From: an uncultured Clostridia bacterium
GTDB taxonomy: Bacteria > Bacillota > Clostridia > TANB77 > CAG-508
Length of the DNA: 64,000 bases
Direction: 5' to 3'
NCBI GenBank assembly: GCA_944391855.1
Contig: CALXVB010000003.1
Location: forward strand, 1-64,000
Below the pieces are notes generated by a model. That model did not search any database, had not been told where the DNA came from, and saw only the letters and a program-made list of their open reading frames with translations. Positions within the stretch are counted from its first letter, which is position 1. Every line of letters starts with the position of its first letter. Made by a program: the position numbers and the translations under genes. This document shows positions 2,808-54,769 of the stretch, piece after piece.

Positions 2808-4260
2808 GTGAGAGACGAAAAATATTTAAAAGAATTAGTCGAATATTTAAGAAAATTCCCAAAAGAAACTGACTGGTTAGAATTTAAAACTAATTATTAT
2901 GAACCTCAAATTATAGGTGAATATATAAGTGCATTATCTAATGCAGCAGCATTGAATAATGTTCAATATGGTTATCTAATATTTGGTATAGATGATGATT
3001 CTCATGAAATAGTTGGCACGAATATAGTATTAAAAAACAAGAAAAAAGGAAATGAAGAATTAGAATCATGGATAACTAGATTACTTAATCCTAAAATTAA
3101 TTTTAATTTTTATGATATAGAAATTAATGGTAAGAAAGTAGCTATAATTGAAATTAAAAGAGCAGAATACACAATTACAAAGTTTGAAAGTACAGCTTAT
3201 ATGAGAATAGGAACAAATAAGAAACCACTAAGTGCTTTTGTTGGAAAAGAAAAAGAATTATGGAGGGTAATAAATTCTATGCCTTTTGAAATGTGTATTT
3301 CTATTGGAAATCTAACAAGTACAGAAGTACTACAAAAATTAGAGTATTCTTCATATTTTGAATTATTAGGTATTCCATTACCAGACAATGTTACACGGAA
3401 TATTAAATTATTTACAGGAAGAGGAATTTATAAAAAAGAATGAAAATGGAAAATGGGATATTACTAATTTAGGTGCGATTTTATTTGCAAAAAATCTGAA
3501 TGATTTTAAGAATATTAAAAGAAAAAGTATTAGAGTAATTCAATATGACGGAAAAAATAAATTAAAGACAATTAGAGAAGAAGTAGGAGATAAAGGGTAT
3601 GCAATTATATTTGAAGGAATTATAAAGTATATTAATACAATAATACCTAAAAATGAAATTATAGGAGAAGCATTAAGAAAAGAAGTATCTATGTATCCTG
3701 AATTAGCAATTAGGGAAGCTGTTGCCAATAGTTTAGTACACCAAGATTTTAATATATCAGGAACTGGACCTATGGTAGAAATTTATACAGATAGAATAGA
3801 AATAACAAACCCTGGGAAACCCTTAGTAAAAATTGATAGATTTATTGATAATCCTCCAAAATCAAGAAACGAACAATTAGCTTCTTTTTTAAGAAGAATA
3901 GGTGTATGTGAAGAACGTGGCAGTGGATTTGATAAAATAGTATATTCCACAGAAATATATCAATTACCTGCACCCAAAATTGAAGTTTATGATGAAGATA
4001 CTAAAATAACACTATATGCACATATGGCTTATGAGGATATGAGTAAAGAAGATAAAATAAGAGCTTGCTATATGCATGCATGTTTAAAATACGTTAGCAA
4101 TGAACATTTAACAAATGCATCTTTGAGGAAACGATTTGGAATAACACAAAATTCAGTTGTATCTAAAGTAATAAAAAAAGCATTAGATGATGGAAAAATA
4201 AAACCTTATGATAAAGATACAGCACCTAGATATATGGAATATATTCCTTATTGGGCTTAA
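2808..4260 (+). pseudogene. AlbA_2 (Schlafen-like) plus HATPase_c_4 putative DNA-binding ATPase/regulator, split by a frameshift near 3388-3443
   Basis: ORF 2808-3443 carries an AlbA_2-like N-domain (LEFKTNYYEP...YGYLIFGIDDDSHEIVGT). ORF 3388-4260 carries an HATPase_c_4-like C-domain (LAIREAVANSLVHQDFNISGTGPMVEIYTDRIEITNPG). The two are in different frames and overlap by 56 nt. Intact homologues are single proteins of about 480-500 aa. A one-base indel around 3395-3415 would fuse them. Confidence 0.5.
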
Positions 4261-5019: not shown

Positions 5020-5940
5020 TTATGTATTATTTTTATTTATATTATCTATAATAATATTTTCATTTTCTTCATCTTTATGCCCTGGGTTTGTTAATAAAGT
5101 ATCTTTTAATGAGTTTTTTAACTTATCACAACATGGCTTAAAAGATACAAATGTAATACCTCCTCCTATTACACCACCAACAACTGGGATAGCCTTCTTA
5201 AAAAATCCAGCAAATACTTCTTTAGTCATTTTTACACCAAACCATTTAGCAATGCTCTTTACTATTGGATACACTGTTCCTTTAGTAAGTGCCGTGTTTA
5301 TTAATTTCTTTTCTACACCTACAGCAAGTGCTTTTGCTATAGACTTTATTGCATTATTTGCACCTGCTACCCCATACATAACACCTAAACATATAGTTAA
5401 TATATTTAATGTTTCTGTATCAAATGCTTGACCTTTTTCATATATGTTTATTTCTGGAAATCCATATAAATACATTAGTTTTTGAGCTGCTCTTAGCATA
5501 TACCCATAATATTGTATAATATCTGCGGGAATAGTTGCTGCCATTGCCGCGCCTCCAGGAGTACCTAGTGCTGCAGATATTCCTGTTACGCAATTTCTTT
5601 CAAAAGCAATTACTTCATCAGCTATTTTATTAATTTCATTAAGAGGTATACCTGCATTTATTGGTGTAGTCTCTATTGCTCTTTCTACTGTTTCTCTTGA
5701 ATATTTTTTACTAAATTCTTTTTCTAGAAAATTTCTTCTATTAATTCCTATTCCCGGAATCCTTAATCCCAGAATAATTATATCTTGTATATCTATTTTT
5801 CCATCTCCGTTTGCATCCATTGCAGTTGTAATTTTATCTTTTGATTTAGCAGTAATTTCTTTTGCTTTGTTCGAAATATTTGTAGTAGTTTTCTTAGCAC
5901 TATTTACAATATTTTCGACTTTTTCTTTCTTTATTTTCAT
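5020..5940 (-). CDS. EcsC family protein
   Basis: 306 aa. [27 protein letters not shown] is typical of the EcsC family. Confidence 0.55.
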
Positions 5941-6070
5941 ATATTGTTCCTCCTTCTTATTTTCTTTATATAGTATTTGTAAATTTCGCGAATATTTTTT
6001 TACCTCAAAAAAATTTTAACCTAATTACTAGTATAAATCAATGATTCGGCTAAAATTCATTTCAATATTA

Positions 6071-6109
6071 TATAAAAACTCTTCAACAACCAATCGGTTT
6101 GTTGAAGAG
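6071..6109 (-). terminator. Rho-independent terminator: hairpin CTCTTCAACAA/TTGTTGAAGAG followed by a U-run on the minus strand
   Basis: Inverted repeat 6079-6089/6099-6109. The A-run at 6071-6078 is the T-run on the minus strand. It lies just downstream of the 6121-6330 gene. Confidence 0.6.
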
Positions 6110-6120
6110 TCTTTCTTAGC

Positions 6121-6330
6121 TCACTCGTCAGTATCATCCTTTTGTTTTCTTGCACGAAACTTGAAGCTCGCCAGAAACATAGTTGCTGCACCAAGAAGGT
6201 AGCTAATTAGCCGATCCAGTGGAAATGCCTTGATGGCGTTCCAAATTTCACTGCCGTAGGTAATAGCCAATACGATAATGAATACCAGAACCGACAATAG
6301 AATAAACTTTACCCAACTTGTGACTCTCAT
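6121..6330 (-). CDS. Small membrane protein in a GC-richer block
   Basis: 69 aa with two hydrophobic helices. Local GC is clearly higher than the surroundings. It has its own terminator. Confidence 0.35.
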   Translation of the reverse strand: MRVTSWVKFILLSVLVFIIVLAITYGSEIWNAIKAFPLDRLISYLLGAATMFLASFKFRARKQKDDTDE

Positions 6331-6458
6331 AATGTATCCTCCTATTGCTTTATTGGGTTTTAGGAACTATTTCCTATATACATTATTATACATTAAATTT
6401 ACACATATTGCAAATTTATGTAAATATGGTTCTTAATAATAAATATCTTCTATATATT

Positions 6459-7964
6459 TTATAGATCTTTTACACTTGGTCCATATATTAGTTTTCCTTT
6501 ATAATCATACCTAGAACCATGACATGGGCAATCCCAAGTTTTATCTAAATTATTCCACGTTAATTCACAGCCTAAATGCTTACAAACTGGATTTATTTTA
6601 TATATTTCACCTTTTTTATTTTTATATACCCCAACTTTCTTACCATCAATTTCAACTATTTTGCCTTCTCCATTTTGTATTTGGTTTATTTCTTCTTTTG
6701 GTATTTCTAATTTTTTTATGACTAATGAGTCTATACTAGTCTTTACTATATTTCCCACTTCTTTTATATTCTTTATTGGTTCTACTCTTGTGGAAGTAAA
6801 TATTTCTTCATATTTGTTTTCAAATCCCATTATCTTATCAGTAATTATATCTGCAGCTATTTTTGAAGTTGTAATTCCCCATTTATTAAATCCTGTAGCC
6901 ACATAACATTTGTCCCATACTTTAGAAAATTCTCCTATATATGGTATTTTATCAAGTGTTATACAATCTTCTGTGTTCCAGTGATATTTTATTTCTCCTT
7001 TTGGGTATATTTCTTTTGCTATTTTCTCTAATTTTGTATATGAATTACTTAAATCCTTTTCTTCTCCTGTTTTATGGTCTGAGCCAACAACAATTAGTAT
7101 ATAGCCATCCTTATCCTTTGCCATTCTTAATGATATAGTAGGTTTTTCTGAATTTATATACATTCCATTAAAAATTTTTTCTTTTGTTTTCATTCCTATT
7201 CCATAACTTGTCCCTTGATACATTTTTAAGAAATAAAATCCTGGTATGTTTACTATTGGATATTTAGTTGCTAATACTAAGTATTTAGTTTTTATTTCAC
7301 AACCATTTTGTGTTTTAACTAAATAGCCGTTTTCTTCGTCTATTATGTCTATAGCTTTTGTATTTTCATATATTTGTAGTCTACTTCCACTACAAATTTT
7401 TGCCAATGCATTTGCATATTTATATGGGTTAAATTGTGCTTGGTTTTCAAATTTTACACCAGCTACTACTTTTACTAAGCTACTTACTTCAATATCTTTT
7501 GCTTCTAAATATTCGGCTTTCCCTCCAAAACTATTTACAACTTCTGCTTCATCTTTTAATTTTTGCATATCTGCTATTGTTCCTGTAAATACATAGCTTG
7601 GTTGATATTCAAAATCACAGTCAATATTTTCTTTTTTTATGATATTAGCTATTCCTTCTATTGCCTCTTCATTTGCTTTATAGTATTCTTTTGCAAAATC
7701 TATCCCTTTTGAATCGGCCAAATATTTATATATCAATCCATGCTCGCTTGTTATTTTAGCAGTACTATTACCACTTGCTTTTCTACATATTCTATCTTTT
7801 TCTATTAAAATAGTTTTTATATTATATTTTCTTAAATTATATGCAAGGTTAAGTCCAGTTAAACCTCCACCTATTATACAAATATCTGTATCTACATTTT
7901 CTTTTAAAGCTTCAAATTTATTAATCTCCTTTTCATTTAAACTATTAATCCAATATGACTTCAT
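6459..7964 (-). CDS. FAD-dependent oxidoreductase fused to a C-terminal Rieske [2Fe-2S] domain
   Basis: 501 aa. N-terminal GGGLTGL dinucleotide-binding motif. C-terminal CKHLGCELTW...CPCHGSRY Rieske motif (CxH...CxxH). Confidence 0.75.
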   Translation of the reverse strand: MKSYWINSLNEKEINKFEALKENVDTDICIIGGGLTGLNLAYNLRKYNIKTILIEKDRICRKASGNSTAKITSEHGLIYKYLADSKGIDFAKEYYKANEEAIEGIANIIKKENIDCDFEYQPSYVFTGTIADMQKLKDEAEVVNSFGGKAEYLEAKDIEVSSLVKVVAGVKFENQAQFNPYKYANALAKICSGSRLQIYENTKAIDIIDEENGYLVKTQNGCEIKTKYLVLATKYPIVNIPGFYFLKMYQGTSYGIGMKTKEKIFNGMYINSEKPTISLRMAKDKDGYILIVVGSDHKTGEEKDLSNSYTKLEKIAKEIYPKGEIKYHWNTEDCITLDKIPYIGEFSKVWDKCYVATGFNKWGITTSKIAADIITDKIMGFENKYEEIFTSTRVEPIKNIKEVGNIVKTSIDSLVIKKLEIPKEEINQIQNGEGKIVEIDGKKVGVYKNKKGEIYKINPVCKHLGCELTWNNLDKTWDCPCHGSRYDYKGKLIYGPSVKDL

Positions 7965-38010: not shown

Positions 38011-38036
38011 GATTTAAATTCGCCCCCTTATATGTT

Positions 38037-38069
38037 GAAAAAAAGAAGAACTAGAAATTCCAGTTCTTC
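38037..38069 (-). terminator. Terminator for the tRNA cluster: GAAGAACT...AGTTCTTC hairpin plus U7 on the minus strand
   Basis: Stem 38045-38052/38062-38069. The A7 run at 38038-38044 on the plus strand is the T-run on the minus strand. Confidence 0.6.
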
Positions 38070-38077
38070 TTTTAGCT

Positions 38078-38390
38078 TGGAGCCACTTGTCCGACTTGAA
38101 CGGACGACCTACTGATTCATACTACTATAATTTTCATTACCACCAAAGGTGTTTGTAGTCTGGACTTTCTCTTTACCATAGCTTATTTGCCTTAGGTACA
38201 CCGTATAAAGTCTCTACACTCGAAGATATAATCTTCTAGCTCGGGATTAGCATATATATAATTTAGCCTTCCCCGAATTAGCGGTGTCCACTATATATGT
38301 TTCCACATATAGGTGCAAGATAGTTCAAAATAAAACTTAAGTTTTATCTATCCCACAAGTCAGTTGCTCTACCAACTGAGCTAAAGTGGC
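38078..38390 (-). tRNA. tRNA-Thr (anticodon UGU) interrupted by a 237-nt intron between positions 36 and 37
   Basis: The exons GCCACTTTAGCTCAGTTGGTAGAGCAACTGACTTGT and AATCAGTAGGTCGTCCGTTCAAGTCGGACAAGTGGCTCCA join into a canonical tRNA-Thr(UGU) cloverleaf. The joined sequence is nearly identical to the Bacillus tRNA-Thr core. Confidence 0.75.
38118..38354 (-). ncRNA. Group I intron (small, tRNA-type) within tRNA-Thr
   Basis: 237 nt, starting with G and ending with omega-G. It carries P/Q/R/S-like elements in order: TAATTCGGGGAAGG, then AATCCCGAGC (a P4 pairing, TCGGG/CCCGA), then CAGACTACA, then GTAGT (a P7 pairing, ACUAC/GUAGU). Confidence 0.6.
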
Positions 38391-38394
38391 ATCT

Positions 38395-38470
38395 TGGTGA
38401 CCCCGACGGGAATCGAACCCATGTCTCCGCCGTGAAAGGGCGATGTCTTAACCGCTTGACCACGGGGCCA
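38395..38470 (-). tRNA. tRNA-Glu (anticodon TTC)
   Basis: Reverse complement reads GGCCCCGTGGTCAAGCGGTTAAGACATCGCCCTTTCACGGCGGAGACATGGGTTCGATTCCCGTCGGGGTCACCA. Confidence 0.85.
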
Positions 38471-38505: not shown

Positions 38506-38581
38506 TGGTGAGCCATCGCGGACTCGAACCGCGGACAACTTGATTAAAAGTCAAGTGCTCTACCACCTGAGCTAATGACCC
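38506..38581 (-). tRNA. tRNA-Lys (anticodon TTT)
   Basis: Reverse complement reads GGGTCATTAGCTCAGGTGGTAGAGCACTTGACTTTTAATCAAGTTGTCCGCGGTTCGAGTCCGCGATGGCTCACCA. Confidence 0.85.
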
Positions 38582-38718
38582 AGATTTAGGCTTGCGTTTG
38601 TTTTGTAAACGCAAGTATTATTTTAAACTATTTTTTTTAGTTTGTCAATACAATTTGTGAATTTTCTGTGAAATTTCCAATTATTTTTTAGTTTTTATAA
38701 TAATTTATATAAAATAAA

Positions 38719-45085: not shown

Positions 45086-47524
45086 CTATTCTTGTTCTTT
45101 TTCTTCCATAGAAATTGTTTCTATACTAACTACTTTTCCTTCATTTGTCCTCATTAAGGTTACACCTTGAGTAGAACGTCCTAATACACTTATGTCTGAA
45201 ACTTTAAGTCTAATTATTGTGCCTGTATCAGTAATTAGCATTACGTCTTCATCATCTGTAGCAATTCTTATTCCAACTAAATTTCCTGTTTTAGATGTTA
45301 CTTTATATGTTATTACACCTTTTCCTCCTCTTGTTTGAACTCTATATTCATCAAGTTCTGTTCTTTTTCCGAATCCATTTTCTGTTATTGCAAGAAGAGT
45401 TGCCTTACTTCCTTGTATTATTGATTCCATTCCTATAACATAGTCTCCGTCGTCTAATCTAATGCCAATAACTCCTTGAGATACTCTTCCCATAGGTCTT
45501 ACATCTTTTTCGTCAAATGTTATACACATTCCTTTATGTGTTACAAGTACTACATTGTCTTCTCCATCAGTGAGTCTTACGTCTATAAGTTCATCTTCAT
45601 CTTTTAAGGTTATTCCTATTAATCCAGTCTTTCTTACAGACATATATTCATTAAGAGAAGTCTTTTTAATTATTCCGTTTTTTGTAGCCATTAACAAATA
45701 TTTTCCTTCTGCAAAGGTTGCAATAGGTATAACTGCAGAAATCTTCTCTCCACCGTCTAACATTAAAAGGTTTACTATTGCAGTACCTTTAGCAGTTCTT
45801 CCTGCTTCTGGTATTTCATATCCTCTTAATCTATATACTTTACCTTTATTACTAAAGAATAATATTGTATCATGTGTAGAACATGTAAATATTTCTTTTA
45901 CGAAATCTTCTTCTCTAGTAGCAATTCCTGTTATTCCTTTTCCTCCTCTTTTTTGGCTTTTATATGTGTCTATTGGCATTCTCTTTACATAGCCAAAGTG
46001 AGTTAGTGCAACAACGCATTGTTCCTCTTTTATTAAATCTTCTACGTCGAATTCTCCTTCTGCTGCAACTATTTTTGTTTTTCTTTCATCTCCATATTTG
46101 TCTTTTATTTCTAATAATTCTTCTTTTATAATGTCATATACAAGCTTATCACTTGCAAGTATTGCTCTTAAATGCTCAATTAATTTCATTAATTCTGCAT
46201 ATTCTTCTTCTATTTTTTCACGTTGCAAACCTGATAATGTTTTTAATCTCATATCTAGGATAGCTTGTGCTTGTATATCAGAAAGTCCAAATCTTTCCAT
46301 TAATCTTTCTTTTGCATCGTCATAAGAATTTCTAATTATTTCAATTACTTCATCTATGTTATCTAATGCAATTTTTAATCCTTCTAATATATGAGCTCTT
46401 GCTAATGCTTTATCTAAATCAAATTGTGTTCTACGAAGAATTACTGTTTTTCTATGGTCTATATAATATTCTAAACATTGTCTCAATGTTAGTATTTTTG
46501 GTTCTCCATTAACTAATGCTAACATTATAACTCCAAAAGTATCTTGCATTTGTGTATATTTGAATAATTGATTTAATATTACTTGAGCATTTACATCTCT
46601 TTTTAGCTCTACAACTATTCTTACTTTTTCTTCTCTATCTGATTCATCTCTTACTTCTGAAATTCCTTCTATTCTTTTTTCTTTTACTAAGTTTGCAATA
46701 TTTTCAATTAATTTTGCTTTATTTACTTGATATGGCAAAGATCTAACAATTATTCTTTGTTTGTTTCCACTCATTTCTTCTATTTCCGCCTCTGCTCTCA
46801 TTGTTATTTTACCTTTACCTGTTGTATATGCTTCTTTTATTCCATCTCTTCCTAAAATTAAACCTTCTGTAGGAAAATCTGGTCCTTTTATAATGCTCAT
46901 TAATTGTTCATCTGTAACATTGTCATCATCAATTATCTTAACTATTCCATTTATAACCTCTGTTAAGTTATGTGGTGGAATGTTTGTTGCCATACCTACG
47001 GCAATTCCTGAAGAACCATTTATTAAAAGTGTAGGTATTTTAGCTGGTAAAACAGTTGGCTCTTGTAATCTATCATCATAGTTTGGCATAAAATCAACTG
47101 TATTTTTCTCTATATCTGTAAGCATTGTTTCTGCTATTTTTGACATTCTTGCTTCTGTATACCTCATAGCTGCTGGTGCATCACCATCAACAGAACCAAA
47201 GTTTCCATGTCCATCAATTAGTGGATATCTCATAGAGAAGTCTTGTGCCATTCTTACCATTGCATCATAAACCGATGCATCCCCATGTGGATGGTATCTT
47301 CCTAAAACTGAACCTACTGTATTAGCACTTTTTCTGTAAGGTTTATCAGAAGTTATTCCATCTTCATACATGGCATATAGGATTCTTCTATGTACTGGTT
47401 TTAAACCATCTCTTACATCTGGAAGTGCACGAGAAACAATAACGCTCATAGCATAATCGATATATGATGTTTTCATTTCTGTTTCAATATTTCTTTCGAT
47501 AATTTTTCCTTCATTTTCTTCCAT
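45086..47524 (-). CDS. gyrA: DNA gyrase subunit A
   Basis: 812 aa. The catalytic-Tyr region and a GyrA-box QKRGGKG in the C-terminal domain distinguish it from ParC. Confidence 0.95.
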
Positions 47525-47715: not shown

Positions 47716-48435
47716 TTATGTTAATAAATTAGCTAACTCTCTTTGTTCATCTGTTAAATTAAAATCATGATTATTATTTTTAATTAAACTATGTAGATTT
47801 TCTATAATGCGAGCTTCTTTTATTGTATTTTCTAAAGGCATTAATTCTTCTAATTTTTCTTGTATTTTTTCATATTCTCTCTCCATACCATCAAAATCTT
47901 TATTTTCAAAATATTCTTTCCAATTGCTTTCATATTTTGCTAGTTTTTCTACTCCATCTATTTGCTCTGTAAATTCATTTTCTATCCTATCACTTACACT
48001 ATTTAATATTGCATCTTTACCACTACTAATTATGTTTGCAATATTACCACTTATTAGTCCTGAAGAACTTGTCTTGTCTAATACTTTATCTAATACATTT
48101 GAAATTCCATCTATTATTCCTCCATTTTTTACAGCATCTCTCGCTTGAGAAATACTATCAAAGTCTCCTGTAAATATTCCAATAACGCTTTTTCCTAAAT
48201 TAATTGCACTATTTATTGCTGTGTCTATTCCTTCTTTAAATCCACCTTGAAAAAAAGCATCTTTTATTTCTACTATCCCCTCTTCTATAAAATCAGGTAA
48301 AACCATTCTAAGTCCTATATCTAAAGCAGAATTAACAGCTTTTCCTATATTAGATTGTAAAAAATTATTTTGTTCTTGTGCAAGATTCTCTTCATTTAAA
48401 TTATTATTTAAATCAACATTATTTTCTAATTCCAT
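47716..48435 (-). CDS. Hypothetical protein, first gene of the gyrB-gyrA insertion
   Basis: 239 aa, Gly/Ser/Ile-rich. No motif recognised. Confidence 0.3.
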   Translation of the reverse strand: MELENNVDLNNNLNEENLAQEQNNFLQSNIGKAVNSALDIGLRMVLPDFIEEGIVEIKDAFFQGGFKEGIDTAINSAINLGKSVIGIFTGDFDSISQARDAVKNGGIIDGISNVLDKVLDKTSSSGLISGNIANIISSGKDAILNSVSDRIENEFTEQIDGVEKLAKYESNWKEYFENKDFDGMEREYEKIQEKLEELMPLENTIKEARIIENLHSLIKNNNHDFNLTDEQRELANLLT

Positions 48436-48459
48436 AATTTTTCTCCTTATTTTTTATTT

Positions 48460-49782
48460 TTAAATATTATTTAATTTATTATTAATATCTATATATTCTT
48501 TCTTTAATTTTTCATCTAATAAATTATATTTATTATTTTTATTGATTAATTTATTATATATTTTTCTATAATTTAATTTTCCTATTACATTAAATTCACT
48601 AAATATATTTTTTAATAAATTAAAATTAATTGATTCAGAATTATATTTATTAAATATTATTTTTATTTTATTAATTTTAATATTTAATTTATTTATATAT
48701 ATATCTAATAATTTTATTGATTTATTTATTTCCAATAAATTGGTATCTGAAATAAATAGACAAAAATCACATATCTCTATTATATTTTTTATATAATTTG
48801 TTTTTTTATTATAATTAGTATCAATTATTATAAGCTCATACATTTCTTTTAAAAAATTTATATTTTCAATTATTTTATTTAAAAATATATTTTCATTATT
48901 TTCTTCTATCTTTTCTCTTATTTTTTCTTTTTTTAAAATTAATAAATCTATTTTTTTATTAATTTTAATTATATTAAAATATTCAAAAATATTATTAAAA
49001 TTATTTTTTGAATATTTATTATTTATTTCATAATTTATTTTTTCTATATAAGTATTTGCATTTTTTGATATGTTTTTAAGACCTAAAATTGTGTTAATAG
49101 AATTATTAAAAAAATCTGAACCAATAATTAAAATCTTATTATTTTTATAAGCATTAATTTTAGCTAAATTTATAGATATAATTGTTTTTCCAACTCCTGG
49201 AGGTCCTGTTATAGAAAATGTTTTATTTTTTATTTTATTTTGAAATGATTTTTTTGAATTTAATTTAATTTTTTTTGAATTTAATATTTTAATTAAATGA
49301 TTATCTATTATATTTTTTGCTGTTTTTTTTATTAATAATATTTTTTTATTTTTATTTTTTTCGTTTTTTTCTTGTTTAATTTTATTAACTATATTTTTAT
49401 TTTCATAATTATTATCTATATTATTATCTATTATTTCTATTATTTTTTGTGTATTAATTTTGTCATTTTTATCTAAATAAATAATTTTATATATATTTTT
49501 ATAATTTAAATATTTTTCTATTTCTTTTTCATTATTTTCTATAATAATTATTATTTTAATACTTTTATTAATTATATAAATTTGTTTTATTAAATCTTCT
49601 ATTTTTATTTCACCTTGTAATATATTATTTATTATTATATAATCAACTTCATTTTTTTCTTCTAGAATTTCAATTATTCCTTCTTTATATTGAATATCAT
49701 TTAAAATAATATTTATATTCTTTTCTTTTTTTAATTCATTATTTATAGATTCATTTCCAATGGCAGTTATTATTTTTTTCAT
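48460..49782 (-). CDS. Receiver-like N-domain plus P-loop NTPase of the ParA/MinD/FlhF (SIMIBI) type; hyper-AT gene
   Basis: 440 aa. Walker A FSITGPPGVGKTIISINLA. Downstream ILIIGSDF and IIIDTNY (DTxG-like) follow with ParA/FlhF-like spacing. The N-terminal ~120 aa resemble a REC fold. GC of many 60-nt stretches is below 10%. Confidence 0.4.
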   Translation of the reverse strand: MKKIITAIGNESINNELKKEKNINIILNDIQYKEGIIEILEEKNEVDYIIINNILQGEIKIEDLIKQIYIINKSIKIIIIIENNEKEIEKYLNYKNIYKIIYLDKNDKINTQKIIEIIDNNIDNNYENKNIVNKIKQEKNEKNKNKKILLIKKTAKNIIDNHLIKILNSKKIKLNSKKSFQNKIKNKTFSITGPPGVGKTIISINLAKINAYKNNKILIIGSDFFNNSINTILGLKNISKNANTYIEKINYEINNKYSKNNFNNIFEYFNIIKINKKIDLLILKKEKIREKIEENNENIFLNKIIENINFLKEMYELIIIDTNYNKKTNYIKNIIEICDFCLFISDTNLLEINKSIKLLDIYINKLNIKINKIKIIFNKYNSESINFNLLKNIFSEFNVIGKLNYRKIYNKLINKNNKYNLLDEKLKKEYIDINNKLNNI

Positions 49783-49800
49783 ATTTATTCCTTTTTAGTT

Positions 49801-51654
49801 TTAATTAAATTTAATTTTGTTTTCTATAATTTCTTTTTCAAAATCTGCTGCATATATTTTATTTAATATATGCTCATCTCCTATGAATGTTAAGCACTCT
49901 CCTCTTTTCAAAGATTTTATTTCTATTTTTTCTTTTTCAGATAAATTAGTAAACTTTTCTAATATTTTTATATTTTCTTCTTCTAAAGAAAAAAATGTTT
50001 TTATACTAGAATTATTTAAAATACTTTTTCCATATACTCCATCTTCTAAGCTGAAAATATCTGATATGTCCTGAGTAACCGCAACTCCACTCCCTCCATA
50101 CTTTCTAATAGTTTTAAATATTTTATATATAAAACTGGCAACGTCTTTATTAGAAGTAACACCTATTAGTCTCCATATTTCATCTAAATATATTGCTTTT
50201 TTTATTTTTCTATCTTTTTTTATTTTATCCCAAAATAATTCAGTAAATAAATACATTCCATATTTTAAATTTTCTTCTCCTAATTCATATACGTCTGCTA
50301 CAATTAATTTATTATTTAATTCTACATTTGTATAATTATTAAAAAAGTTTAAAGAACCTTTTATAAATGGAATTAATTTTGTTTTAAATATTTTTGTTTT
50401 TTCGTCTTTATCTAATATATTATAAAAGTCTTGTAAAATTGGCATGTCTTTACTTTCTTTAAACATTATATTGTTTATTTCATTTTCCAAATCATTTTCT
50501 TTATATTTATATAAACTTTTATCATCAAAAGTAATACCTTTTGTAGAATATAATTCTATTAATTTTTCTTCTAAAATTGCTTTTTCCTCTTCATTTATTT
50601 TTCCAAATATAAGATTAAAAAAACCTATTAATTTACTAATTTTATTTGCTAAATATCCTTGTTCATCATCTTCAATACTTTCTTTTCTTATATCAAACAC
50701 ATTTATGTATGTATCTGAGCCTGGTCCTATTTTTAAAAGAGTTCCATTTAAATTTTCACACAAATTATTGTATTCTCTTTCAGGATCTATTATGTATTGC
50801 TCTATTCCTAGTATTCTATATCTCAAAATTAATAATTTTGTATAAAAAGATTTCCCAGCACCAGAAGTTCCAAAAATGCACATATTCGCATTTTTATATT
50901 TTTGTGTATTGTATCTATCCACAAATATCAAAGAATTATTATATATATTTATTCCAATAAATATTCCTGTATCATCAAAAATGGCAGAAGATATAAATGG
51001 GTATGTACATACAAGACCACTAGTTAATACATTTCGCTTTGAAACTTCTTTTAGTAATTTATTATTTTCCATTAAAGGTAAACATGCTCTATATGCTTGT
51101 TCTTGCCTAAAATACGCTCTTCTTGTATGCAATCCTTTACTTTCTATTATTCCTTCTATTTTATTTAAAATATTTTCTATTTCATTTAAATCTTGAGAAT
51201 ATATACATACATAAATATATAAATAATATAAATCTTCGTTATTTATTTGTAATTCTTTTCTAATGTATTTTGCATCATTATATGTAAAAGCTGCTATATC
51301 TATGTCTTGCCTATTCTGATTATTTCCTTTCAAATCCGCACCAACATTACCTATATGATATGTAAGTTCTCTTATTGCTTTATAACTATCTTGTTTTTCA
51401 TAAAAAATTGAAATATTTATATCTATATTTGTATCTATTAATGTTTTTAAAAGTAATTCATTTTGTTCTCTAAAATAATTTACTATTAATATTGATGAAA
51501 AATAATTATTATCTATTTCAATATATTTTGGATTAGATAAATCAATACATGATGGTGCTAAAAAATCATTATCTGAAAATGTCCCTTCTAAAAAATTTAA
51601 TTTTTCTTTTTTATTTTTTTCTATTTTTCTTTTCAATTTAAAAATATTTTTCAT
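49801..51654 (-). CDS. VirB4-like conjugative/T4SS ATPase (PrgJ/TrsE/TcpF type)
   Basis: 617 aa. Walker A CIFGTSGAGKSF. Walker B YLDEIWRL. A TQ motif AVTQDISD. The N-terminal PSCIDLSNPKYIEIDNNYFSSILIVNYF...DINISIFYEKQD matches the Gram-positive VirB4 N-domain pattern. Confidence 0.6.
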   Translation of the reverse strand: MKNIFKLKRKIEKNKKEKLNFLEGTFSDNDFLAPSCIDLSNPKYIEIDNNYFSSILIVNYFREQNELLLKTLIDTNIDINISIFYEKQDSYKAIRELTYHIGNVGADLKGNNQNRQDIDIAAFTYNDAKYIRKELQINNEDLYYLYIYVCIYSQDLNEIENILNKIEGIIESKGLHTRRAYFRQEQAYRACLPLMENNKLLKEVSKRNVLTSGLVCTYPFISSAIFDDTGIFIGINIYNNSLIFVDRYNTQKYKNANMCIFGTSGAGKSFYTKLLILRYRILGIEQYIIDPEREYNNLCENLNGTLLKIGPGSDTYINVFDIRKESIEDDEQGYLANKISKLIGFFNLIFGKINEEEKAILEEKLIELYSTKGITFDDKSLYKYKENDLENEINNIMFKESKDMPILQDFYNILDKDEKTKIFKTKLIPFIKGSLNFFNNYTNVELNNKLIVADVYELGEENLKYGMYLFTELFWDKIKKDRKIKKAIYLDEIWRLIGVTSNKDVASFIYKIFKTIRKYGGSGVAVTQDISDIFSLEDGVYGKSILNNSSIKTFFSLEEENIKILEKFTNLSEKEKIEIKSLKRGECLTFIGDEHILNKIYAADFEKEIIENKIKFN

Positions 51655-51796
51655 TTTATTTTTCCTCTCTAAAGTTAAAGAATTATTTTTTATTTGTTTT
51701 TATAATTAATTTAAATAATTATTTTATTTTTGATTTTTATCCTTAATTTTTATTTGTTTTTATTGTTGATTTTCTCGTTTAAGTAATAATTAATTA

Positions 51797-52399
51797 TTAT
51801 TTATTATTAGTATAAATTCTTGTATTAAAAAAAGAAAATAATATATGTTTTATTTGTTTTTTATCATTTATATCTGTAGCAATATTTCCGCATCTTGATA
51901 ATCCATCTTTAATTTTAAAATATTTATTATTTAAATTTTCTGTTGCATTAGTTTGAATATCTATAATTTCATTGTTTTTATTAATATATTCTAAAATTAT
52001 ATAATAATTTTTTGATGACGATTTTTTATTATTATTTAATTCTTTTATTTTTTCTATATATTTTTTTGATATTTCTTGGATGTTTTTTTCTTCTTGAATT
52101 AAATGATTATTTATTTGAGAAAAATGATTAGATAAATCTACTTTATTACTTTGTATTAATATTTGAAAATTAAAATCACATGTTTTTAAAAAAATTTTAT
52201 ATGAATTTAAAATAGCTTCTTTTTCTAAATCTGATTTTAAATTAAAATTAATCGGATTTATTTTAATTATTTTTAAATATCTATTATCCTTTGTTTTAAT
52301 TATTCCATTTTCTAATATTTCTTCTATTTTTAACCATTCCTGGCTAGAATTAATATTGTTTTTTTTATTTATTTTAATTATATATTCCTCCTTTCTCAA
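51797..52399 (-). CDS. Hypothetical protein (hyper-AT) upstream of the VirB4-like gene
   Basis: 200 aa, Asn/Lys/Ile-rich. No TM helix and no recognised motif. Confidence 0.3.
   Translation of the reverse strand: MRKEEYIIKINKKNNINSSQEWLKIEEILENGIIKTKDNRYLKIIKINPINFNLKSDLEKEAILNSYKIFLKTCDFNFQILIQSNKVDLSNHFSQINNHLIQEEKNIQEISKKYIEKIKELNNNKKSSSKNYYIILEYINKNNEIIDIQTNATENLNNKYFKIKDGLSRCGNIATDINDKKQIKHILFSFFNTRIYTNNK

Positions 52400-52819: not shown

Positions 52820-54769
<1,950 letters not shown>

Follow-up and report, generated by a model that had tools for sequence, protein, structure and literature searches.

Classical sites of group I introns within the tRNA genes of bacteria are found between positions 34 and 35 of tRNA-Leu, 33 and 34 of tRNA-fMet, and 36 and 37 of tRNA-Arg and tRNA-Ile. 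The intron of Azoarcus sp. BH72 pre-tRNA-Ile(CAU) (subgroup IC3, class Ile2.5Ug), located at 36/37, carries GAAA tetraloops on its helices P2 and P9 and a CCUAAG/UAUGG receptor in P8. The same site is occupied by the alpha-proteobacterial tRNA-Arg(CCU) introns (Arg.5Ug, Bbo3), also of IC3, whereas the tRNA-Leu(UAA) introns of cyanobacteria and plastids (Leu.3Ug), which have an IC3 core, are inserted at 34/35. In Clostridia, a 210-nucleotide (nt) intron that lacks an open reading frame (ORF) interrupts the tRNA-Asn(GUU) gene of GCA_022846035.1 at 35/36 (Table S5, PMC13011429). According to Williams 2020 (bioRxiv 10.1101/2020.01.27.920355), 5292 introns fall into 21 tRNA/site classes, and the seed alignment of the tFind software includes Thr.5Ug, Thr.3Ug and Thr.2Ug. 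Here, we describe a tRNA-Thr(UGU) gene that is split between positions 36 and 37, in the anticodon loop, within a 64,000-nt stretch (hereafter the window) of contig CALXVB010000003.1 (GCA_944391855.1). The host is an uncultured Clostridia bacterium assigned to CAG-508, one of the major families within TANB77, an uncultured order of genome-reduced bacteria (PMC11680825). The gene lies on the minus strand (38390-38078), and the interrupting element is very probably a compact, ORF-less group I intron of the IC3 type in a chromosomal gene, as judged from its sequence.

Using ARAGORN in intron mode, the gene was called as tRNA-Thr(tgt) i(37,237), and its joined exons form a perfect 76-nt cloverleaf with the anticodon loop CUUGUAA. 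This agrees with a first-pass annotation of the same DNA, which had proposed a group I intron at 36/37 of a perfect tRNA-Thr(UGU). Both exons also align onto one contiguous annotated 76-nt phage tRNA-Thr gene with 92% identity (BLAST). The insert, 237 nt long and starting and ending with G exactly as proposed there, was matched by Rfam Intron_gpI (RF00028) from 38342 to 38141 on the minus strand over the full model (1-253), with 39.3 bits (E=2e-8) in a search of 801 nt, and group I was the only Rfam family that matched it. It contains no ORF beyond a 30-aa chance frame and no endonuclease gene; there is no maturase gene inside or adjoining it, and neither terminal repeats nor a transposase could be identified. 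Its content of guanine plus cytosine (G+C) is 35%, compared with 26% for the window. We consider it a group I intron because of the full-length Rfam match, the ARAGORN intron-mode call, covariation across 73 homologues and the existence of exact intron-less alleles.

To describe the secondary structure, we used an alignment (A1) of the window intron and 72 distinct short introns from other loci (73 sequences), with 8 exon bases kept on each side. A full group I structure from P1 to P9 was written on A1 and its pairs were counted, with slid partners and 500 shuffles as controls. Standard pairs occurred in 98.2% of cells, compared with 35-41% when the 3' partners were slid by 1-3 columns. Compensatory changes were observed in 33 of the 71 pairs, and none of the 500 shuffles equalled the observed paired percentage or covariation score. 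The helices with compensatory changes were P1, P1a, P2, P3, P5, P6, both parts of P8, P9.0, P9 and P9a. All parts of the core (P3-P4-P5-P6-P7-P8) could be placed in canonical order, including the P3/P7 pseudoknot, and most of the same helices were recovered independently by RNAalifold and by the minimum-free-energy fold of the single sequence. Coordinates of the helices, the exons and the surrounding operon are shown in Table 1.

Examination of individual helices confirmed part of the earlier assignment and corrected the rest. P1, for which no canonical form had been seen by eye in the first-pass annotation, does exist: its splice-site wobble between U36 (U-1, 38355) and G (38316) is present in 73 of 73 sequences, and one pair near the wobble changes from G-C to A-U in 21 of them. 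The P, Q, R and S motifs reported previously are all present, and the P/Q pairing is indeed P4. The R/S pairing (CAGACUACA with GUAGU) is also real, but it corresponds to P9.0 rather than to P7; the true P7, based on the Rfam alignment and the A1 structure, is formed by GACU (38212-38209) and AGUC (38166-38163) and is presumably the guanosine-binding helix. P9.0 (ACUAC, 38159-38155, with GUAGU, 38125-38121) shows a U-A to C-G change in 18 sequences and forms the closing helix of the 3' domain, directly ahead of the terminal G. Similar changes were found in P9 (C-G to U-A in 31 sequences), in P9a (U-A to C-G in 23) and in P8, whose outer stem has A-U replaced by G-C in 26 sequences and C-G by U-A in 4, and whose inner stem also covaries. 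P5 is a simple hairpin without P5abc, and one of its pairs occurs as A-U, G-C, C-G or G-U. The motif CCUAAG...UAUGG in P8 is the classical 11-nt receptor for GAAA tetraloops, and the GAAA tetraloops of L2 and L9a are invariant across the alignment; by analogy with the Azoarcus intron, these loops and the receptor would clamp the fold. An extension of P3 by pairing G74 and G75 with C167 and C168 was also considered and was rejected, since C167 and A166 covary with P8 partners instead. It should be noted that exon GACUU (38358-38362), on the 5' side of the anticodon arm, is perfectly complementary to AAGUC (38163-38167; A1 columns 2-6/214-218), a segment overlapping the P7 3' strand. RNAalifold pairs these two segments, in which all positions are invariant; the pairing may have arisen by chance or may be an alternative pairing before splicing.

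Table 1 Positions in the window of the split tRNA-Thr(UGU) gene, its predicted intron helices and the other features of the tRNA operon
Feature	Position	Strand	Details
tRNA-Thr(UGU) exon 1, positions 1-36	38355..38390	-	36 nt, ends ...CUUGU, anticodon U34 G35 U36; ARAGORN intron mode
tRNA-Thr(UGU) exon 2, positions 37-76	38078..38117	-	40 nt, CCA encoded; ARAGORN intron mode
Predicted group I (IC3-type) intron, ORF-less	38118..38354	-	237 nt, starts with G, ends with G (omega-G 38118); family hidden Markov model (HMM) 233 bits
P1 5' strand, exon UGU and intron GGGAUAG	38348..38357	-	Pairs with 38323-38314; 5' splice site after U 38355
P1 3' strand, internal guide sequence CUAUCUUGCA	38314..38323	-	Alignment structure and fold
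P1a hairpin, inserted in P1 loop	38330..38347	-	Compensatory changes in 6 of 7 pairs
P2 hairpin, invariant GAAA tetraloop 38303-38300	38291..38312	-	Compensatory changes in 7 of 9 pairs
P3 5' strand ACACC	38283..38287	-	Pairs with GGUGU 38202-38198; compensatory changes in 3 of 5 pairs, including C-G to U-A in 22 sequences
P4 (UCGGGG/UCCCGA), J4/5 AA and P5 hairpin	38241..38276	-	P4 invariant in 73 sequences
P6 hairpin	38219..38239	-	Compensatory changes in 6 of 8 pairs
P7 5' strand GACU	38209..38212	-	Pairs with AGUC 38166-38163, pseudoknot with P3; Rfam alignment; invariant in 73 sequences
P8 two-part hairpin, motif CCUAAG...UAUGG	38175..38197	-	Covariation in both stems
3' domain, P9.0 enclosing P9 (38151-38141) and P9a (38139-38128, GAAA loop)	38121..38159	-	Covariation
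tRNA-Lys(UUU), cluster gene 1	38506..38581	-	ARAGORN; Rfam tRNA 66.5 bits
tRNA-Glu(UUC), cluster gene 2	38395..38469	-	ARAGORN; Rfam tRNA 64.4 bits
Promoter-like site TTGACA, 17-nt spacer, TAAAAT, upstream of tRNA operon	38620..38648	-	Consensus scan, 11 of 12 matches
Intrinsic-terminator-like hairpin and U run, end of tRNA operon	38036..38073	-	15 base pairs (bp), -17.4 kcal/mol; ViennaRNA fold

The distribution of this intron was analyzed by scanning species-representative genomes with a pattern whose anchor was the 5' half of tRNA-Thr(UGU) and in which U36 had to be followed by a base other than A. At least 119 loci were matched, and at least 80 of them carry a tRNA-Thr(UGU) gene interrupted at 36/37. 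Among the 80 introns listed (78 distinct sequences), 74 are 218-245 nt and six are 437-659 nt in length; all 80 run from G to G and keep both U-1 and the terminal G. The hosts are mostly metagenome-assembled genomes (MAGs) of uncultured Clostridia or Clostridium sp. from rabbit, Hadza human, sheep, wild-mouse and other gut samples, including Clostridium sp. CAG:245, CAG:492, CAG:508 and CAG:780, and a few are labelled Lachnospiraceae, Bacilli, Mollicutes, Erysipelotrichaceae or Oribacterium. Thus, the earlier remark that such an intron is unusual in Firmicutes was overstated, as the intron is present in many uncultured gut Clostridia and the Thr.5Ug class had been catalogued in 2020. Among the matches listed, the closest genome loci are ~95% identical in the tRNA region and ~80% in the flanks, with gene order kept, and the same Lys(UUU)-Glu(UUC)-Thr(UGU) cluster surrounds 64 of the 80 intron-bearing genes. 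The T-stem covaries among the intron-bearing genes (GUCCG/CGGAC, GCCCG/CGGGC and AUCUG/CAGAU), so the exons appear to be under selection too. The intron-bearing locus of the window itself was found in two independent metagenome assemblies, one identical (L002, 100%) and the other 99.2% identical (L004), with no differences in the Thr gene. Three other, independent metagenome contigs (L001, L003 and L005), which have the identical downstream SDR gene, break inside the 3' part of the intron (at ~38131 and ~38181); a mixture of intron-plus and intron-minus strains in the samples is one possible cause.

Intron-less alleles were searched for in metagenome contigs on the basis of an uninterrupted junction together with the acceptor stem of the window gene. 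At least 120 intron-less loci with the same acceptor stem were identified, most of those listed being in the same Lys-Glu-Thr cluster. In at least 20 contigs the uninterrupted gene is identical at 76 of 76 positions to the predicted spliced tRNA, and at least five exon haplotypes of intron-bearing genes also occur without an intron. Hence, members of the clade differ in whether they have the intron at the normal tRNA-Thr(UGU) locus. Two orthologous intron-less loci (L163 and L218) have flanks 77-91% identical to the window, and their alignments stop exactly at 38355 and 38117; together with the identical uninterrupted genes, these breaks fix the splice sites and rule out boundary shifts, a difficulty noted in PMC13011429. 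Splice boundaries after U33 or U34 were also considered, but they would give anticodon loops of 8-9 nt and are contradicted by the intron-less alleles.

In order to place the intron among known tRNA introns, a family nhmmer profile was scored against reference tRNA introns from two published tables, with subgroup labels taken from Table S5 of PMC13011429. The scores favored IC3: the IC3-labelled tRNA introns reached 16-80 bits, compared with 7 bits for the IB2 tRNA-Lys intron and no match for the IA1 tRNA-Ile2 intron at 36/37. The best reference was the IC3 tRNA-Asn(GUU) intron of Bacillota_A mentioned above (80.5 bits), and the second-best was Arg.5Ug (Bbo3), which matched nearly the whole model with 75 bits. 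The Thr.3Ug intron (Mti5) followed with 68 bits and the tRNA-Leu(UAA) intron of a megaphage (LR756501.1) with 62.9 bits; for these two and for Bbo3 the source gives no subgroup label. The Azoarcus-type Ile2.5Ug intron, whose IC3 identity is well established, scored 21 bits. Based on these profile scores, its size, the lack of P5abc and the pattern of GAAA tetraloops and receptor, we assign the Thr intron to the IC3 type.

Comparison with the individual systems revealed both shared and distinct features. The Azoarcus intron resembles the Thr intron in its insertion site, its compact ORF-less organization (P1-P2, P3-P8, P4-P6, P9.0 and P9), its U-1·G wobble and terminal G, and the tetraloops and receptor, which the Thr intron shares. 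It differs in host tRNA and phylum, is G+C rich and has low sequence similarity; moreover, the Thr intron possesses an extra P1a hairpin and a separate P9/P9a pair. The Arg.5Ug introns have the same ...GUGGUAUG 3' end closed by P9.0, whereas their tRNA, guide sequence and host phylum are different. The P7-P3-P8 segment of the clostridial tRNA-Asn(GUU) intron (GUGUAGAGACUUUACACGG...) is nearly the same as that of the Thr intron, although the former is inserted one position upstream in another tRNA. Leu.3Ug introns display the same order of elements but differ in site and host tRNA. With respect to class, the window intron has the position (exactly 36/37 of tRNA-Thr), the U-1 and the terminal G that define Thr.5Ug in tFind. 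However, the representative of this class, Rba53, resides in a tRNA-Thr(GGU) gene, is G+C rich and is unrelated in sequence to the Clostridia family: Rba53.Thr.5Ug, for which the source gives no subgroup label, had no nhmmer match to the family profile at E<=10. Site, and not descent, defines the class. Mti5 also interrupts tRNA-Thr(UGU), but at 34/35, and the 'divergent' tRNA-Thr(GGU) introns at 36/37 of Patescibacteria group with subgroup IA (PMC13011429).

Phage sequences were also searched. BLAST against phage genomes detected no homologous Thr intron, but only tRNA-Thr exon matches and the megaphage tRNA-Leu(UAA) intron, and a scan of viral contigs with the exon-anchored pattern identified no family member, only short non-group-I insertions in phage tRNA-Thr genes. 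Within the phage collection, the Thr intron has its nearest relative in this megaphage intron, which is 205 nt long, of the IC3 type, and splits a tRNA-Leu(UAA) gene at 34/35 (L270, 1361-1651 of LR756501.1, a 735-kb uncultured megaphage). The short insertions, 34-115 nt in length, directly follow ...CUUGU in the anticodon loop of many phage tRNA-Thr(UGU)-like genes (L006, L013, L012, L016, L017, L009, L021, L030 and L023); they have T-arm-like (GTTCAAATC) and CACCA motifs, none is a group I intron, and they look like nested or permuted pieces of tRNA. In addition, on the minus strand of L012 (~2900-3230, IMGVR_UViG_3300045988_126685), ARAGORN reported a 'tRNA-Stop(tta)' whose 225-nt intron shows a weak match to the family profile (E=5e-7). 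This call is probably a group I intron of the tRNA-Leu(UAA) type whose boundary has been shifted, the alternative being a phage suppressor tRNA.

By analogy with characterized group I introns, the following splicing pathway can be proposed. The operon would be transcribed and the tRNAs cut out of the transcript. In the Thr precursor, the anticodon (U34 G35 U36) would pair with the guide sequence to form P1, including the U36·G wobble. A free guanosine bound in P7 would then attack after U36, and the terminal G (38118) would subsequently take the guanosine's site, allowing the exons to be ligated. The product would be a 76-nt tRNA-Thr(UGU) with a normal CUUGUAA anticodon loop. Considering that, across 38 long ORFs of the window, ACA accounts for 55% of the Thr codons and that the gene occupies the ordinary tRNA-Thr(UGU) site of its relatives, splicing is probably needed for growth, although a second copy of tRNA-Thr(UGU) may be present outside the window.

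Several observations weigh against the interpretation as an IC3 intron that splices by itself. First, the Rfam score (39.3 bits) is below the gathering score of 50. Second, many helices are A-U-rich and the G+C content is only 35%, so a protein chaperone or high Mg2+ may be needed in vivo. Third, P10 would comprise at most 2 bp (guide UU with A37 and A38 of exon 2), as assessed by eye at positions that are invariant. Fourth, P4 and P7 are also invariant in the 73 sequences, and covariation therefore neither supports nor contradicts them; such invariance is usual for the catalytic core of group I introns. Finally, IC3 membership is based on similarity and architecture and not on a subgroup classifier.

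Some of these features would be expected of a group I intron that depends on a host protein, either a chaperone or a maturase-like factor, for splicing in vivo. This possibility, a variant of the explanation proposed here, is consistent with the low G+C content of the intron in a genome of 26% G+C, with the largely A-U composition of P1a, P2, P5 and P6, and with the 2-bp P10. However, the catalytic core, both GAAA tetraloops and the P8 receptor are intact and invariant, the intron has no maturase gene in or beside it, and IC3 tRNA introns of similar size (Anabaena and Azoarcus) self-splice in vitro. Protein dependence thus appears unlikely. We also considered whether the intron has been co-opted, either to gate tRNA-Thr(UGU) supply in a GTP- or Mg2+-dependent manner, or to protect the tRNA gene or anticodon loop from integrating elements or anticodon nucleases. 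This idea arises because the intron lacks an endonuclease and yet is conserved, with its catalytic elements intact, throughout a large clade of uncultured gut Clostridia with reduced genomes, in what may be the sole tRNA gene for the commonest Thr codon, ACA. On the other hand, presence/absence polymorphism at the same locus speaks for the intron being dispensable, and we regard co-option as quite improbable.

Another explanation is that the locus is a pseudo-tRNA, in which a dead intron resides in a dispensable copy and an intact tRNA-Thr(UGU) elsewhere decodes the corresponding codons. The sub-threshold Rfam score is in accord with this scenario, and the 64-kb view of the genome leaves room for a second copy. 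If this were the case, decay of the intron and exons would be expected. In contrast, the 73 homologues keep every helix with compensatory changes, the U-1 and the terminal G are conserved in all 80 listed homologues, the exons retain a perfect cloverleaf and a covarying T-stem, and the locus is precisely where relatives have an uninterrupted tRNA-Thr(UGU). A pseudogene is therefore highly improbable. An assembly artefact or a different element (insertion sequence, miniature inverted-repeat transposable element, group II intron or protein-spliced bulge-helix-bulge intron), to which the three contigs breaking inside the intron might point, can practically be dismissed, given the same sequence in two independent metagenome assemblies, homologues in at least 80 genomes, the lack of terminal repeats and transposase, the Rfam match to group I only and an insertion site at 36/37 instead of the 37/38 of protein-spliced introns. 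The bulge-helix-bulge candidate was further rejected in view of the group I ribozyme character of the insert and the bacterial host; the bulge-helix-bulge motif itself was not searched for.

The self-splicing group I intron interpretation is also compatible with what we observed in its relatives. Endonuclease genes of the HNH type are present inside the introns of L043, L088 and L136, and a frameshifted HNH remnant was found in that of L091. In a Bacilli MAG (L140, DAOOPL010000001.1), the tRNA-Thr(UGU) intron is 649 nt long and carries a gene for a PD-(D/E)XK endonuclease (PF11645, E=4.7e-14); in the same region (5658-7086), the adjacent Tyr(GUA) gene is also split, by a 619-nt group I intron. 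Homing-endonuclease genes are still found in relatives from genomes of the Bacilli type. The family-HMM match of the long variants is interrupted at profile positions ~93-98 or ~124-128, which lie between P5 and P6/J6/7, and P6 is where the endonuclease genes of relatives are inserted. The 437-nt intron of Clostridium sp. CAG:780 (L121, 6284-6796) owes its length to an internal partial duplication, the duplicated segment containing, among other parts, a copy of the intron 3' end together with the opening bases of exon 2. In the short introns, the variant present goes with the exon haplotype: the GGAAUAG form of P1 occurs in all 16 genes whose exons are of the GAU/GCCCG type, and introns diverge on average by 0.10 when the exons of two genes are identical and by 0.14-0.23 when they are not. 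This pattern fits mainly vertical descent after endonuclease loss, with intron losses or occasional homing. The intron-less cognate alleles in related genomes are potential homing sites, and the endonuclease-bearing relatives together with the ORF-less window intron match the life cycle usually seen in mobile group I introns after loss of the endonuclease.

With regard to genomic setting, the split gene is the last of a same-strand Lys(UUU)-Glu(UUC)-Thr(UGU) cluster, and the promoter-like site upstream may drive this operon. The terminator-like hairpin at its end was missed by the consensus scan because it has few G-C pairs. The window carries dnaA, gyrB and gyrA and thus represents the origin region of a bacterial chromosome. 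Between gyrA (45086-47524) and gyrB (52820-54733), the minus strand encodes a VirB4-like conjugal-transfer ATPase with neighboring ORFs (47716-52399). The ATPase itself (49801-51654) matched the CD1110 family model with E=1.4e-84, which is under the cutoff of the model. This segment, close to dnaA, resembles a type IV secretion or conjugative-element module that entered the origin region by insertion.

Standard annotation would miss both the intron and the tRNA. The Rfam check suggested in the first-pass annotation did give a match in the 801-nt search, but one under the gathering score, and scans of the whole window at the gathering threshold and at E<=0.01 reported no group I match. The RF00028 seed contains no bacterial introns, and tFind accepts matches of ~18-20 bits (bioRxiv 10.1101/2020.01.27.920355). 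Similarly, ARAGORN in default mode did not call the split gene, the only other tRNAs it found in the window being tRNA-Lys(CUU), tRNA-Lys(UUU) and tRNA-Glu(UUC).

We found no description of the Clostridia tRNA-Thr(UGU) 36/37 family in the literature, in a search whose scope did not extend to the phylum counts of Williams 2020. The CAG assemblies, which date from 2013, would probably have passed the Williams 2020 pipeline, so its counts may already include the Clostridia Thr(UGU) cases. Across 4934 complete genomes surveyed in 2026, no Thr(UGU) 36/37 intron was reported in Bacillota groups, and a single Bacillota_A intron was listed, in tRNA-Asn at 35/36 (PMC13011429). The absence of the Thr(UGU) type from that survey is to be expected, since the clade is essentially represented by MAGs only. 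The Clostridia family is a well-conserved, clade-wide IC3 intron at an already catalogued site; it leaves the known mechanism of tRNA group I introns unchanged and should not surprise a specialist.

The main consequence concerns genome annotation. Because default tRNA finders and the curated Rfam threshold both miss the gene, tRNA-Thr(UGU) will seem to be missing from many gut Clostridia genomes, those of the clade around Clostridium sp. CAG:508 among them, with consequences for tRNA-based estimates of genome completeness as well as for codon-usage modelling. The same point has been made for Patescibacteria (PMC13011429). In addition, the family offers a compact natural series for the gain, decay and loss of group I introns, comprising ~80 species with short introns, carriers of HNH or PD-(D/E)XK endonuclease genes, one frameshifted remnant and intron-less orthologous alleles.

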